Source: Octopus vulgaris (taxonomy: Eukaryota). Taken from it: a DNA stretch of 64,000 bases. The stretch covers positions 85,560,001-85,624,000 of the forward strand of contig OX597824.1 in assembly GCA_951406725.2 (NCBI GenBank), read 5' to 3'. The notes under the pieces were generated by a model that had not been told where the DNA came from, made no database searches, and was given only the letters and a program-made list of their open reading frames with translations. Of this stretch, positions 1 to 55,087 are shown piece by piece (position 1 is the stretch's first letter; the number at the start of each line of letters is the position of its first letter). The position numbers and the translations under genes are program-made.

Positions 1-52
1 ACTCAGAACGTAACGGCAGACGAAATACCGCTAAGTATTTCGCCCGGCGTGG

Positions 53-506
53 CGAAAAGTCACTGATATCGAAAAGGTGTAAACAGGCAATAATAAATCT
101 CAGAGCGAGGCATAAACAGTAGCTGCACGACATCGTGATGTATATTTTCCACTTAAATCTGGCTAACCCCTAAGGGTGGATGCTACTGTAGCTTGTAGCC
201 CCAGGAGGACATCTCCTCCAGCTGGCTATTGACACACTTTCTGTGCTCTATCAGTATTTGCAAAGGGGAGTCATCCTTCCCGTTTTCAATCAATGATACA
301 TACGGACTCGAGTTTCTGGATATTGACCCGTCATCGGCGTGTGACAATCAGCGGTTGTCGATGAAAAGTAGGCCTCCCTCTGCAAACATATATCCTTTTT
401 CCAGTGACGAAAAGTCACTGATATCTAAAAGGTGTAAACAGGCAATAATAAATCTCTGAGTGAGGTATAAACAGTAGCTGCACGACATCGTGAAGTATAC
501 TTACCA
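53..506 (-). mobile_element. Retrozyme-like non-coding element, ~1.3 copies of a 355-nt unit with a type I hammerhead
   Basis: Direct repeat 53-~145 = 408-~500 (period 355); HHR at 299-343; homologous along its length to the 360-nt unit at 32720-33104; abuts (TA)n at 507. Confidence 0.8.
299..343 (-). ncRNA. Type I hammerhead ribozyme (CCGAUGA core variant)
   Basis: Minus strand: cacacg CCGATGA c-gggt-caat-atcc-a GAAA ctcgag TC cgtatg; palindromic stem III, GUC site, stem I extends further (tgat/atca). Confidence 0.8.
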
Positions 507-1289
507 TATATATATATATATATATATATCACCGTGATCACCGTGACCGACCAGGCTATCAGATGTTGCTACACATCGCTGGTCACAATGCGCTTTGCAT
601 TGTTTTAGCCTTCAAGTGACGCCAATAGAAAAAAGAGTGAGAGAAAGTTATGACGAAAGAGTACACTTATAAACTACGTATCCACTACGTTCACTATTAC
701 TTTTCTCGGATTTTACTGTTTAGATTGTCCAAAATGTCATAATTTAAAATACTAGAATATGATTTCAGACAGATTTGGCTGCTGTGTCTAACAGGAACGA
801 TTACATACAGACTCCGATGTTGGAAGCAGTTAAAAATGGAATGGTAGACAATTCTTGTATTTCACAATAATTTCATTTCAGTAACTAAGCCATTGTAGTT
901 CCGCAGTTTCTCAATTTCGATCTGCAAGATGAAGCTATAAAAAGAAAAGACACCGTTGCGGCTTTCGAACGATGAAATGATGTAAGGTGTTTTGTGAGTT
1001 CCTGGGTTACGAGTGCATAAACCAAACTTTTTCAATTAAATTGCAGAGTATTTTGCCATTTTATATCAGCAAACTTAAAACACCTTGAAAAAAAGAAAGA
1101 TGATTTATCAGGTCATTCCATAAATAATTTTAAAATACCTATTTTAAAATAACAACAGAACATATTAACTTAACCTTGTGTAGTTATCAAACAATAATTT
1201 ATGTTGTTGCAATATGTCTTAGCCAATTCAGAAACTGTTTTGTCCTTCTTAAGTAAGAACTGTCCACAGTGTATTGAAGACATATCATG

Positions 1290-4530: not shown

Positions 4531-4666
4531 ATCCTTCTCTTCATAACTCCGACAACAAGAAAAAAATAAGAAAGAAAGAAAAAGAAAGTAGAAATAGAAA
4601 TGAAAACGTCCACAACACCAGTAATGTGGCTGAAGCTAATCCAAAGGAAGATAACGCAACTGTGTA

Positions 4667-4718
<52 letters not shown>

Positions 4719-5795: not shown

Positions 5796-5834
5796 ATAAC
5801 CAACGTTTCGGATATAATCCTTCATCAGGGGCTA
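5796..5834 (-). ncRNA. Minimal hammerhead ribozyme (Penelope-type)
   Basis: tagcc-c CTGATGA a-ggat-tat-atcc GAAA cg TT ggtta; upstream of and antisense to a GIY-YIG relic. Confidence 0.7.
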
Positions 5835-6384
5835 ATAAAAAAAAAACGTTGAAGATAGACAGAGTTTACATTCTCTCAGCTTGAAACACTGGCTGCAACT
5901 GATAATGGACGCAGAATAACACAGGCTGCTAACGTGAAACAGAAGTTATAGGAGAGGGCGACGATTCGAATCCCGTTACAAAACGATGCGACAATATTTT
6001 TCTGAATCGAGGCTATCCTCCATTAGTTGTCAATCCGGCACTCCACCGAGCCCGAGCCATCAACCGCACCGCAGCTCTCCTACCGTCTTTACGCGCTTCC
6101 ACCGACTGTATTCCACTCTCTCTCACCTACCACCCGTCTATCATCCCTCTAAAATACAAACTCACCTACAACTTCGGCATTCTTCTTTCTGACCCAACAA
6201 CCGCCCCAATCTTTCCCACACCGCTTCTCCTGTCTTTTAAAAAGGATATGATTCCTAGAAATCTCCTTGTAGAAGCTTCACAGCTCCCAGTTCCGTACAA
6301 CTAGGAACCTATAAATGTTCCCGCCGACGATGTAACCAATGCCCCTACATCAACAATATTACCGCCATCAAGGGGCCCAATAAG

Positions 6385-6702
6385 CAATATCACATAACAC
6401 ACCACTTCTGTTGTACATCGGTGAATCTCATATATTGTATCGTATGCAAACTCTGCGGTGCTCTTTACATTGGAGAAACAGGGCGACGCCTTGGGGATCG
6501 CTTTCGCGAACACATCAGAAGCATAATGCTACGTATGCCAGGCCAACCTGCCGCCACCCACTCCAACACTGCGAATCATTATATTGCAGATTTATTAGTG
6601 TGTGGCATGGCCTTGCACCACGGACCCCACTTCTCTAAGAAACGAAAAGAGCAACGTTTCATATTTGGTATTGGCACTATGTCCCCGAGAGGTATAAATG
6701 AT
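6385..6702 (+). pseudogene. Penelope-like element GIY-YIG endonuclease fragment
   Basis: NLIYCIVCKLCGALYIGETGRRLGDRFREH...KEQRFIF...SPRGIN; degenerate upstream part from ~6000. Confidence 0.9.
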
Positions 6703-6783
6703 ATTTATATATTAATAGATCAGACTTATACAGAGTACAAACGACAGAGAAAATTAGAGGGGCGGAAGGCAGGTGTTATAAGT

Positions 6784-6900
6784 CCAACAGCTGTTTCTGG
6801 GGGCTCGGAGATTCATCATAATACTGTTGGTAGATGTAGTTCATCACAATATGCAGCCAGTAATGGAAGCAAATAAACATTGGAGCTACCGTCATCAGGG
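6784..6900 (-). ncRNA. Hammerhead ribozyme with long stem II insertion
   Basis: cc CTGATGA cggtagctc...[~70 nt]...gagccccca GAAA cagctg TT gg; palindromic ACAGCTGT stem III. Confidence 0.6.
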
Positions 6901-8145: not shown

Positions 8146-9197
8146 GTCAGTGGTTTTTGACTTATTTCATTTGTAGCGCCCCTTTTAAGTAGTTGTTATG
8201 CCTAGTGCCCACCTAAGTGGTGAGTGTCGTATCACGGTTAAACTAACTTAAGATGGACGATAAATTATAAATTTTAATCTAAACCTGGATTATATAAGCT
8301 TTTAATAGTGATATGATAAAAAAAAAGTCATAAAAACAAAAGTTGTAAATTTACTTTATACATTTCTTTATAACCCACAAGGGGCTAAACATAGAGGGGG
8401 CAAACAAGAAAAGACAAAGGGATTAAGTCGATTACATCGATCCCAGTGCGAAACTGGTACTTTATTTATCGAACCCGAAAGAATGAAAGGCAAACTCGAC
8501 CTCGGCAGAATTTGAACTCAGAACGTAACGACAGACGAAATACATATTTCTTTATTACCCACGAGGGGCTAAACATAGAGGGGACAAACAAGGACAGACA
8601 TAGGTATTAAGTCGATTACATCGACCCCAGTGCGTAACTGGTACTTTATTTATCGACCCCGAAAGGATGAAAGGCAAAGTCGACCTCGGTGGAATTTGAA
8701 CTCAGAACGTAACGGCAGACGAAATACCTATTTCTTTATTACCCACAAGGGGCTAAACATAGAGGGGACAAACAAGGACAGACATAGATATTAAGTCGAT
8801 TACATCGACCCCAGTGTGTAACTGGTACTTAATTTATCGACCCCGAAAGGATGAAAGGCAAAGTTGACCTCGGCGGGATTTGAACTCACAACGTAATGGC
8901 AGACGAAATACCGCTAAGCATTTCGCCCACTGTCCTAACGATTCTGCCAGCTCGCCGCCTCTAAATTTACTTTATATATTACAAGTTAATGACTTCCCTG
9001 CGCCTGATGAGATCTCAGTATATTTTAATAAACATTACTAGTTTTATCATGTATAATACAATTACTACTATACATAAAATTTTTGTAAGTTATGTTACCT
9101 CACCTTCTCTCCCTCATCGCTCCCTAAAGCCTAACGTCCTCTTCTACTTGCCCTTGCCCAGCGTCCTCTTGTGGATTGTACCGCCAACATTGAGAAC
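8146..9197. mobile_element. Probable hAT-type MITE split by a SINE trimer
   Basis: cagtggttttt...gagaacctg ends; left part recurs inverted at ~51470-51582. Confidence 0.45.
8361..8960 (-). mobile_element. Head-to-tail trimer of SINE family A
   Basis: Three ~183-bp units, only the last with a complete tRNA head. Confidence 0.9.
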
Positions 9198-9744: not shown

Positions 9745-9948
9745 TGTGACCTCGCGTGTACCGTTGGCGATTTTTTCCCTCTGTCTTCCCTTCTCTGGAT
9801 CTTTCCTACTCCTATGTTTCCGACGAAGAGCTCCGCTCGAAACGTTAAACCTTCCTTCTTCCCTTCTTTCCTGAGCGTCCAATAATACTATATTTGTTCC
9901 ACGTCCTCGCGTTGTTGTGTATTTTTTGTTTTCTTGTTTGGATTAACT
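9745..9948 (+). mobile_element. ~200-bp non-coding hammerhead-bearing element (Penelope pLTR/retrozyme-like)
   Basis: Near-identical inverted copy at 36541-36748; ends tttggattaac(TA)n. Confidence 0.8.
9816..9850 (+). ncRNA. Minimal hammerhead ribozyme (CCGACGA variant)
   Basis: gttt CCGACGA a-gagc-tcc-gctc GAAA cg TT aaac. Confidence 0.75.
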
Positions 9949-21510: not shown

Positions 21511-21629
21511 TGCTTACAGCACCTAGGTTTCCCAAGCGGTCACCCATCTAAGTACTAACTAGGCTCGATGTTGCTTAACTTCGGTGATCGGACGAAAACC
21601 GGTGCTTTCAACGTGATATGGCCGTGAGC
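21511..21629 (-). rRNA. 5S rRNA gene (solitary variant; may be a pseudogene)
   Basis: gctcacggccatatcacgttgaaagcaccggttttcgtccgatcaccgaagttaagcaacatcgagcctagttagtacttagatgggtgaccgcttgggaaacctaggtgctgtaagc; full length, internal A/C boxes intact. Confidence 0.93.
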
Positions 21630-32254: not shown

Positions 32255-32604
32255 TACATATATATGCATGCATATATATGCATACATATATATACATGAC
32301 CACAGTCAAATGACTGAAACAAGTAAAAGAGCAAAGAGCAATATATAGATAGATAGATATAAATATAGATATATACATATATATATATATATATAATAAT
32401 TCTCTAAAAGAGATATAGACAGTAACTGCTCGATAACATAAGGGACTAAAGCCATCTGAATATGGCTAGGGACAGGGCAGGGTGGTGGGGGTGTTACTGT
32501 TGCATTTAGCCCCAGGCGAACATCGACGTCACCAGAAAGGCTCGACACCGTCACGGTGTCCTTATCCTGCAAAGGGAGGTAATTCCCCGATGAAGCGGAA
32601 ACCA

Positions 32605-32650
32605 CACACGGACCATGGTTTCAAGGTGTATTGCCTATCGTCGGCGTGTG
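32605..32650 (-). ncRNA. Extended type I hammerhead ribozyme
   Basis: Reverse complement of 32888-32933. Confidence 0.85.
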
Positions 32651-32887
32651 GTAGGCTTCCGCTTCCTCGACGAATTCTCACTCTGCAGGATATTCATATA
32701 TAGATTTTCAAGCAAAATACAGATGGCTTTAGTCCCTTATGTTATCGAGCAGTTACTGTCTATATCTCTTTTAGAGAATTATTATTGCTTTCGAACAGAT
32801 TTTCGAAATCAGCAAATGTATTTTGCTTGAAAATCTATATATGAATATCCTGCAGAGTGAGAATTCGTCGAGGAAGCGGAAGCCTAC

Positions 32888-32933
32888 CACACGCCGACGA
32901 TAGGCAATACACCTTGAAACCATGGTCCGTGTG
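32888..32933 (+). ncRNA. Extended type I hammerhead ribozyme (CCGACGA core)
   Basis: gaagcggaagcc-tac-cacacg CCGACGA t-agg-caataca-cct-t GAAA ccatgg TC cgtgtg-t-ggtttccgcttc: 6-bp plus 12-bp stem I with internal loop. Confidence 0.85.
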
Positions 32934-33101
32934 TGGTTTCCGCTTCATCGGGGAATTACCTCCCTTTGCAGGATAAGGACACCGTGACGGTGTCGAGCCT
33001 TTCTGGTGACGTCGATGTTCGCCTGGGGCTAAATGCAACAGTAACATCCCCACCACCCTGCCCTGTCCCTAGCCATATTCAGATGGCTTTAGTCCCTTAT
33101 G

Positions 33102-33175
<74 letters not shown>

Positions 33176-41891: not shown

Positions 41892-42032
41892 TAAATTCAT
41901 AAAAGTCAAATTATAAATGAAACCATTAAAAAATCACCAAAGACATACATACACACACCCAACCCGGGGGACCTAAAACTACGACCCATTGTAGCTGGCC
42001 CATCCTGTGAAACACACAGACTAAGTCTACTT

Positions 42033-43544
42033 ATGGAAATCCTCCTGAAACCCTTCCTTAAACATATCGATAGCCATATCAGAGATGACTTAGATATGTT
42101 AAACCACCTTCCAAAAAAAGCCAAGGAAGAAACAATCCTGGTTTCATTTGATGTAGTCAACTTGTATACCAGTATACCTCATAATTATGGACTGGAGGCA
42201 ATACAGTTCTGGTTAGACCAATTTCCGGAAGAAATACCAAAAAGGATCAGTAAAGAATTCATTACTAAATCAATTGAATTCATCCTACACAATAACCACT
42301 TCATGTTTGACAATACATTTTACCGTCAAAAATCCGGAATTGCTATGGGTACAAGGGCAGCACCAGTCATTGCGAACTTAACAATGGGATACATGGAAAT
42401 AATCATTTACCAGGAATCTTTATCAATCTTTGGAAACCCCCTCTCTCAATACATAAAAGAGAACTGGAAACGATTCTTGGACGATTGTTTTATTCTCTGG
42501 AATGAAAACACAGATAAACTCTTAAAATTTAAAAACCTATTGAACAGCATAAACCCAAATATACAGTTCACAATGGAATACAACCAAAAGGAGCTCCCGT
42601 TCTTGGATATACTAATTAAAAAAATTAACCTTAAAATAGAAACAGACATTTTCTACAAAGCCACAGACGCCAAACAATACCTTCTCTTTAATTCATGCCA
42701 CCCAAGACACACTAAAACAAACATCCCCTTCAACCTTGCAAGAAGGATATGCACAATAGTGTCAGAACAAAATACCAGGAACTTCAGACTGCAAGAATTC
42801 AAAAACACCTTAATTGACAGACATTACCCAGCTCAACTCATAGAGGATGGGATCAGACGTGCAACAGAAATCAACATAGAAACTTTAAGAAAAGTTCAAC
42901 ACAACAACACACCTTCCCCGAAAATACTACCTTACATATCTACATACAACCCCAGAAACAAAGAAGCTTTCACCATCATCACCCAGAATTTACCAATACT
43001 TCATAAAAACCCCAAATTAAAGGAAATTCTAAACATACACCAAATCATTAAAAGCTACAAACAGCCTAAATCACTTAAAAAGATTCTCACAAAGGCAAAA
43101 TTATCTTCTGAAATTACGGATGCAAAAGTAAAAAAATGTGGTAGATCGAACTGTGCAACATGTCCTAACCTACTAGAAGGATCAGAATTCTTCTTTAAAG
43201 AGGGACAGAAATTCAAGATCAAATCTAACTTTACTTGTGCCTCTGAAAACATAATTTATGTCATAAAATGCTCGGGCTGCCACCAAGACTACGTGGTGTC
43301 CACGGGACTATCACTCAGACGTAGATGCACACTGCATCGACAACAGATTGCATTCCCAGAATATAGAATGATACCTTTTAGTGAGCACATTGAGAAATGC
43401 GCAAAGCAACTACAACCACAATTTTTAATCTTTCCATTTTACCAATGTGCTTTCGGATCATCAACACAAATTAGACTAAACAAGGAAATATTCTTCATTG
43501 AAAAGTACAAACCCAGACTCAACTATCCAAACATAATAATATAG
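42033..43544 (+). CDS. Penelope-like reverse transcriptase + GIY-YIG endonuclease (N-terminally truncated)
   Basis: SFDVVNLYTSIP, GIAMGT, RFLDD, PFLDI, SCHP, CxxxxCxxC linker, NIIYVIKCSGC..YVV(G)STG, EH, EIFFIEKY..LN. Confidence 0.92.
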   Translation: MEILLKPFLKHIDSHIRDDLDMLNHLPKKAKEETILVSFDVVNLYTSIPHNYGLEAIQFWLDQFPEEIPKRISKEFITKSIEFILHNNHFMFDNTFYRQKSGIAMGTRAAPVIANLTMGYMEIIIYQESLSIFGNPLSQYIKENWKRFLDDCFILWNENTDKLLKFKNLLNSINPNIQFTMEYNQKELPFLDILIKKINLKIETDIFYKATDAKQYLLFNSCHPRHTKTNIPFNLARRICTIVSEQNTRNFRLQEFKNTLIDRHYPAQLIEDGIRRATEINIETLRKVQHNNTPSPKILPYISTYNPRNKEAFTIITQNLPILHKNPKLKEILNIHQIIKSYKQPKSLKKILTKAKLSSEITDAKVKKCGRSNCATCPNLLEGSEFFFKEGQKFKIKSNFTCASENIIYVIKCSGCHQDYVVSTGLSLRRRCTLHRQQIAFPEYRMIPFSEHIEKCAKQLQPQFLIFPFYQCAFGSSTQIRLNKEIFFIEKYKPRLNYPNIII

Positions 43545-54690: not shown

Positions 54691-55087
54691 TCTTTATATA
54701 TAAAAGTAAGGTTGTGTGCTGTCTGTCTCCTACGATTTAGATTCCTAACTACTCCCACATTTTGCGGTGCAGTTTAACCAAAACCGGGTATCTTATAGTC
54801 GTGATTCATATCGAGCCCTTCTGGGTATTAGCGCGCATCTACGATGAGTCTACGATTTAAAAAAAATTTACCATCAATTTTTCCCATTTTTAATCCATTT
54901 TTGGCATATATAAGTAACTCTCTAAAAATGTATTATTAAATCTCAGAACGTAAAAAGCTACAGTAACACGCCCCCCCCCCCCTTTATGGTTAGCCATATT
55001 GAGATGGCTATTATACTTTACATCTCTAAAAATGCTTATATAGTTATTTCCCTTACAAACCCGAGCAACGCTGGGCGATACTGCTAG
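54691..55087 (+). mobile_element. Non-autonomous Helitron
   Basis: A|TCTTTATATATAAAAG ... cccgagcaacgctgggcgatactgCTAG|T. Confidence 0.88.

Follow-up and report, generated by a model that had tools for sequence, protein, structure and literature searches.

The non-LTR retrozymes described from coral, mussel and axolotl (PMC7229834) have a canonical-type type I hammerhead ribozyme in a competent form, tandems of 150-450-bp units, a GC content below 50%, no ORF, no LTR and a self-paired circular fold, and circular RNA has been shown for them. The main text of that paper contains nothing on a tail, inverted copies, microsatellite targets, covariation or cephalopods, and according to a 2020 review (PMC7761336) animal retrozymes have no motif that would name their mobiliser. 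The other close systems are the Penelope-like elements (PLEs) with an endonuclease. As described in PMC8557442, PMC11167929 and PMC4209133, they insert as 5'-truncated partial tandems with an inverted 5'-truncated copy at the 5' end, into AT-rich, (TA)n or other microsatellite targets (PMC8557442), and optionally bear at one end a tail of 30-40 bp (PMC8557442), which is the mark of two internal initiation sites downstream of the hammerhead and goes together with a predicted dimeric protein (PMC11167929). Both lines meet in a preprint that regards retrozymes as non-autonomous PLE derivatives (bioRxiv 10.64898/2026.07.22.740005). Its case draws mainly on vertebrates, where it relies on co-occurrence and on homology to pseudo-LTRs, and it contains no tail or inverted-insertion analysis; in Xenopus, 24 of 57 retrozyme families match a Repbase element, nearly always a PLE. 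The retrozyme class and the PLE hypothesis are already published. In the literature searched, neither the family studied here nor tail or inverted footprints of retrozymes are described, and the supplements of PMC7229834 and of the preprint may list the family.

The window, a 64,000-nt stretch of Octopus vulgaris DNA, contains a decayed copy of a non-LTR retrozyme that belongs to a large, recently active family (Table 1). The family is known from the genome sequence and is likened to the described retrozymes by description. Each unit has a type I hammerhead, predicted to fold in a competent form, the units are non-coding and lack an LTR, their GC content is 45-46%, and the dispersed tandems fall within the 150-450-bp range with periods of 352-360 nt, to be compared with 350-390 bp in the mussel; subfamily A shares with one axolotl form a U·U mismatch at the base of stem II (PMC7229834). 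Classification as a retrozyme is almost certain. The insertions share with PLEs the truncated tandems, the inverted copies, the tail and the AT-rich targets. They differ from them in lacking an RT or endonuclease ORF, in a unit of about 355 nt instead of several kb, in a tail of about 44 nt instead of 30-40, and in a hammerhead of canonical rather than minimal size. The same mobilising class is reached here as in the preprint, but the link with PLEs comes from insertion footprints, and no pseudo-LTR homology was found in the PLE families sampled.

Table 1. Coordinates in the window of the retrozyme copy, its parts, its flanks and the family A insertion.
Feature	Position	Strand	Remarks
Retrozyme copy, old B subfamily	49..506	-	458 nt, 1.29 units; 5'-truncated; 3' end non-canonical
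One full 355-nt unit	54..408	-	no conserved ORF
Type I hammerhead	299..343	-	motif scan and inspection
Hammerhead stem I	343-338 with 304-299	-	one C·A mismatch
Hammerhead core	337-331	-	U4C variant
Hammerhead stem II	329-326 with 321-318	-	C330·A317 unpaired at 10.1-11.1
Hammerhead GAAA	316-313	-
8-nt palindrome of the hammerhead	313-306	-
Predicted cleavage site	between 305 and 304	-	inferred from the hammerhead consensus
Hairpin (cagtgac)	402..420	-	two-sided changes between subfamilies in 4/7 pairs
Hairpin (gcaca/tgtgt)	231..248	-	two-sided changes in 2/7 pairs
Hairpin (ggagga/tcctcc)	204..219	-	weak support across to family A
Multiloop	116..189	-	closing helix of 8 bp (189-182 with 123-116) almost invariant
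Covarying hairpin inside the multiloop	163-148	-	damaged in the window copy
Fixed 3'-end sites	88..132	-	site 1 at 132, site 2 at about 90-88; roughly 44-nt 'tail' between
(AT)n microsatellite	507..529		at the 5' end of the copy; usual target of the family
5'-truncated SINE-like repeat	1..48	-	joined to the 3' end of the copy with 3-nt microhomology at 49-51
Family A insertion, inverted pair	32393..33105		(AT)n on both sides
Family A minus arm	32393-32721	-	ends at site 2
Family A plus arm	32711-33105	+	ends at site 1

Of the limits first proposed for the copy (53-506), the end at 506 held and the other was moved to 49. The period of 355 is supported by 113 matches, against 57 for the next best period, and the overlapping parts of the repeat are identical at 99 of 110 positions. 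The copy departs from the old-B majority at 20 positions in 355 nt (5.6%), inside the range of 10-29 positions found in 17 other old-B copies. It is probably dead: 10 of 90 pairs are broken, stem I contains a mismatch, and with one hammerhead only it could not release a monomer by itself. Rfam at its gathering threshold did not report the hammerhead, the sole match in the window being a 5S rRNA. The copy reads through both fixed 3'-end sites of the family and is fused to the adjacent repeat, which we regard as SINE-like and which extends beyond the window edge up to an (AT)n run, so that the pair is flanked by two such runs. Both a template switch and a later deletion could have produced the fusion.

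In the microsatellite-rich genome of 2.8 Gb, the hammerhead pattern gave 3,083 matches, against none for the reversed control, and a looser pattern gave 3,320; both counts are lower bounds on the number of units. With the window copy as query, the best relatives were 86-91% identical (best 40 of 4,436 candidates scored), and with family A copies at 98-100% were obtained, in arrays. At least seven subfamilies (A, B, B2, C, D, E and F) and one divergent copy, G, were distinguished; outside A they form a ladder-like tree whose terminal branches become shorter toward C. Copies are dispersed across many chromosomes and contigs, in arrays of up to about 11 units. Eight circularised units, whose lengths fall in all three frames, contained no conserved ORF, the longest Met-initiated frame being 57 aa, and the arrays consist of the retrozyme unit only, with no ORF combining RT and GIY-YIG. 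The units do have sense T-runs, and in eight of them no match to a Pol III B-box was found. Among 24 listed sequencing runs, 20 contained half or more of the words sampled from subfamily C (10 studies, 7 organism codes), none of the runs listed as holding them being an RNA run.

The original prediction had placed the window copy in one family with a 360-nt unit, here family A, on the basis of matching motifs on the minus strand, kept hairpins and a palindromic stem III, and had concluded that the unit size is conserved. The relationship proved sound. Global alignment over the whole 355-nt and 360-nt units gave 226 identical columns of 378 (60%). Relative to 500 dinucleotide shuffles the score is z = 16, and it falls to z = 13.7 when the hammerhead is left out. 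All the quoted motifs lie on the minus strand, stem III is palindromic in both, and intact units measure 352-360 nt. Two of the three hairpins compared, cagtgac with agcaaa and gcaca with gacacc, are retained through two-sided changes. The third, ggagga with ggtga, is the weakest: it forms in some A folds and is absent from the fold of the A unit in the window, and family A is out of register in this region of the sequence-only alignment.

Folded as circles, the units share a rod that prolongs stem I and a set of hairpins. The proposed check by circular folding succeeded for eight of nine units, since young units gave z = -5.2 to -7.6 and two old-B copies z = -6.0 and -8.1 (30 shuffles each); the stable self-paired circular fold is thus a property of the family to which the window copy, at z = -1.0 (30 shuffles), is the exception. 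A structure of 90 pairs was drawn from the single-unit circular folds of non-A units, the linear consensus fold having given 62 pairs only and missed two hairpins, and pairs were counted on a sequence-only alignment of 34 units, where 92% of cells pair. Two-sided change was found in 30 pairs, compared with 15.8 ± 2.8 in shuffles, which ignore relatedness, and 11-22 when the structure was slid along the alignment. Relatedness enters in the branch test, carried out by parsimony on one tree with the A branches excluded: pairing was kept in 30 of 41 lineage-defining changes on internal branches and in 72 of 210 changes on terminal branches (Fisher p = 4e-6). Family A, which had been left out when the structure was drawn, differs from the old-B majority at both sides of 22 pairs, 20 of which still pair (chance 0.44, p = 7e-6); pairs changed at one side still pair in 7 of 18 cases, and most of the failures lie in three helices for which the register of A is shifted. 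These controlled tests support selection on a branched RNA fold, claimed at the outset from a few stems, and the fold that the comparisons show to be selected is a conserved rod plus multiloop. The multiloop, inside which 3'-end site 1 is located, may be the element bound by the reverse transcriptase.

Among 141 distinct hammerhead contexts, 131 have a palindromic stem III loop, and the palindrome takes four different sequences, which fits the dimeric mode of hammerhead action set out in PMC4209133. The U4C variant is found in the window copy, A, D and B2, old B being mostly canonical at position 4, and at position 10.1-11.1 most subfamilies have no pair, C having G-C. Both features, present in several active subfamilies, could make cleavage weak; according to PMC3088659, U4C lowers activity in vitro yet leaves enough for a viroid in vivo. 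CpG decay is an unlikely origin of the canonical old-B core, given that the canonical core is present in 19 of 35 copies and that decay on the opposite strand is seen in none. The same U4C change recurs in unrelated hammerheads, namely those of most copies of a PLE family with an 884-aa frame (L295-L310), of the PLE family at L153 and of several retrozyme subfamilies.

Two homologous sites, separated by about 44 nt and located 173-177 nt and about 217-221 nt downstream of the cleavage site, account for the 3' ends of 70 of 72 arms in A (41 loci), 64 of 72 in the C lineage (43 loci fetched by the C motif) and 32 of 38 in B (26 loci); (AT)n follows most of them. The 5' ends are scattered, as variable truncations, and inverted pairs, in which two arms meet at their 5' ends, are frequent. 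Each site is used by one arm in 55 of 62 inverted insertions (A 29/30, C 19/22, B 7/10), the C count being a script result of 16/23 to which four insertions with short internal pieces were added by inspection and from which one segmental duplicate was dropped. The other seven have one non-canonical end, and use of the same site twice was seen in none of the 62. The one-site-per-arm rule is apparently strict. Some A insertions (L167, L175, L054) look chimeric between sub-variants or include several short inverted pieces, which suggests template switching.

Fixed 3' ends, a tail, inverted 5'-truncated copies and (AT)n targets together point to mobilisation of Penelope type, and, judging by this footprint, the family is very probably mobilised by a PLE enzyme. 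Differing break points had been offered as an argument for a circular template; the argument fails, the 5' ends being scattered truncations and the 3' ends fixed, and in the window copy the odd 3' end being the fusion to the SINE-like repeat. Random opening of a circle as the source of differing ends is ruled out by the fixed 3' ends. Run-off at the hammerhead cleavage site was likewise rejected, ends being found there in 4 of 70 cases in A, where 1.15 are expected (p = 0.03), and in 1 of 76 in C, where 1.4 are expected, jointly not significant.

A non-autonomous, non-coding non-LTR retrozyme mobilised by a PLE is the preferred explanation of these data, with a probability that we put at roughly 0.85. 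According to this explanation, tandem arrays would be transcribed, and type I hammerheads, probably acting as dimers through the palindromic stem III, would excise monomers of 352-360 nt, which a host ligase may circularise, as suggested by PMC7229834. The RNA would take the conserved rod-plus-multiloop fold. A PLE protein, probably a dimer, would then nick (AT)n DNA (by analogy with the enzymes in PMC11167929 and PMC8557442), and reverse transcription would begin internally at the two fixed sites about 44 nt apart, one for each DNA strand. That copying passes the hammerhead site, proceeds for up to about 11 units and stops variably, with 5'-truncated tandems and inverted pairs as the outcome, is seen in the insertions themselves. 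The window copy is an old, decayed insertion with a single hammerhead, probably inactive.

Arms that reach the cleavage site continue past it in 141 of 146 cases (A 66/70, in 31 of the 34 insertions listed first on C1; C 75/76), hence the template must be continuous there, either as a ligated circle or as an uncleaved multimer. In 14 arrays selected by length, units of one array differ at 1.4 positions on average, 72 of 182 such pairs being identical, and units of different arrays at 7.2 (median 5.5, none of 364 pairs identical, with two subgroups mixed); array-specific variants are present in all units and in both arms (for example L164, L169 and L177). Such haplotypes imply a recurring step from monomer to multimer, most simply rolling-circle copying, and a circular template is likely. 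Gene conversion, smoothing by the assembly, or linear transcription of arrays that are already uniform may produce the same uniformity.

The strongest competitor retains the element and the PLE enzyme, and supposes that a genomic array is transcribed into a linear multimer that serves as template uncleaved, with circles, if any, as a side product. Internal initiation works on linear, unprocessed RNA in vitro, and in the one PLE tested in vitro cleavage was dispensable and unprocessed RNA the main substrate (PMC11167929). Core variants that weaken the ribozyme persist in active subfamilies (U4C lowering in vitro activity, PMC3088659), a uniform source array would also produce uniform daughters, and uniformity itself has exceptions, the long array L162 being heterogeneous along its length and L016 having alternating unit variants. 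However, the haplotypes shared by all units and both arms need the monomer-to-multimer step, truncation alone would shorten arrays at each round although arrays of 9-11 units exist in young subfamilies, and the stem III palindrome has been preserved through four different sequences. We consider the linear multimer unlikely, without dismissing it. A more specific form of the circular reading, in which a PLE dimer binds one monomeric retrozyme circle, primes each strand at a different one of the two sites and rolls round it, the RNA being recognised by its fold, is put forward tentatively, as less likely than not. If the rolling-circle reading is true, rolling-circle target-primed reverse transcription has left its record in the genome as these insertions, the retrozyme is an independent ribozyme-bearing RNA parasite of a PLE, and the binding element is the covarying multiloop, with no homology to any PLE end.

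Whether the unit could instead be a pseudo-LTR or solo end of an autonomous PLE, and not an independent element, was considered together with the search for a partner. The Xenopus families that match PLE pseudo-LTRs (bioRxiv 10.64898/2026.07.22.740005) give this idea a precedent, the retrozyme ends behave exactly as PLE ends, and PLE diversity was sampled in part, the best 150 of 6,136 and the best 150 of 13,087 candidates being scored. At least two PLE families in the genome are young and have long open frames. One combines RT and GIY-YIG in a frame of 781 aa; its unit measures 4,713 nt and ends on (AT)n at either of two 3' positions separated by 40 nt. The other has a frame of 884 aa and a minimal hammerhead. 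Against the idea, retrozyme arrays consist purely of units set head to tail, and no ORF is inserted in them; a comparison covering 96 PLE-bearing loci and two stretches of the window detected no similarity to PLE ends (matches at E 0.15 or worse), and alignments of the tail to the 781-aa family were not significant (p 0.31-0.93); and the hammerhead is canonical in size with an internal loop 1, whereas that of the 884-aa family is minimal. Matches at PLE loci were otherwise separate, neighbouring retrozyme insertions (L146, L153 and L307). A PLE end is thus an improbable identity for the unit. An ordinary satellite or minisatellite amplified at the DNA level, with incidental folding, can have tandems and internal homogeneity through unequal crossing-over, but dispersal on many chromosomes, paired fixed 3' ends with scattered 5' ends, (AT)n targets and compensatory change concentrated on lineage-defining branches make it hardly credible.

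The locus alone is ordinary, its class being known and the copy probably dead. The family is more useful: its insertions bear the PLE footprint directly, covariation along the ladder of subfamilies supports the fold, and the young PLE families with long open frames are candidate enzymes. Which enzyme copies animal retrozymes, and whether the circle is the template, can now be tested at the bench.

Several further observations concern PLEs. At L307:2069-2680 a retrozyme inverted pair and a 5'-truncated PLE of the 884-aa family occupy one (AT)n run as separate insertions. In the 781-aa family, inspection by eye of L145 revealed an apparent upstream reading frame overlapping the start of the main frame (108-1600) and a hammerhead-like motif with a U3-A8 core (4650-4690). 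At 41895-43544 (+) the window itself contains a 5'-truncated PLE frame that is 549 aa long and matches RT; it shares 57% identity with the 781-aa family and has (AT)n before its start and after its 3' end. A broken endonuclease fragment of an older PLE family lies at 5933-6876 (+), near a minimal hammerhead-like motif on the opposite strand at 5828 (-). At 9820 (+) and 36673 (-) there are solo PLE ends that contain minimal hammerheads and stop on (AT)n; they share 76% identity with the end of the 884-aa family.

Other repeats in the window were also recorded. About 60 nt at 54955-55021 resemble the hairpin region of the retrozyme (67% identity, E 0.005) inside another repeat, presumably Helitron-like. 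The 5S rRNA match is an isolated gene at 21511-21629 (-), with 106.5 bits. Three tandem 184-nt units at 8362-8912 are apparently the 3' part of the SINE-like repeat that is fused to the retrozyme.
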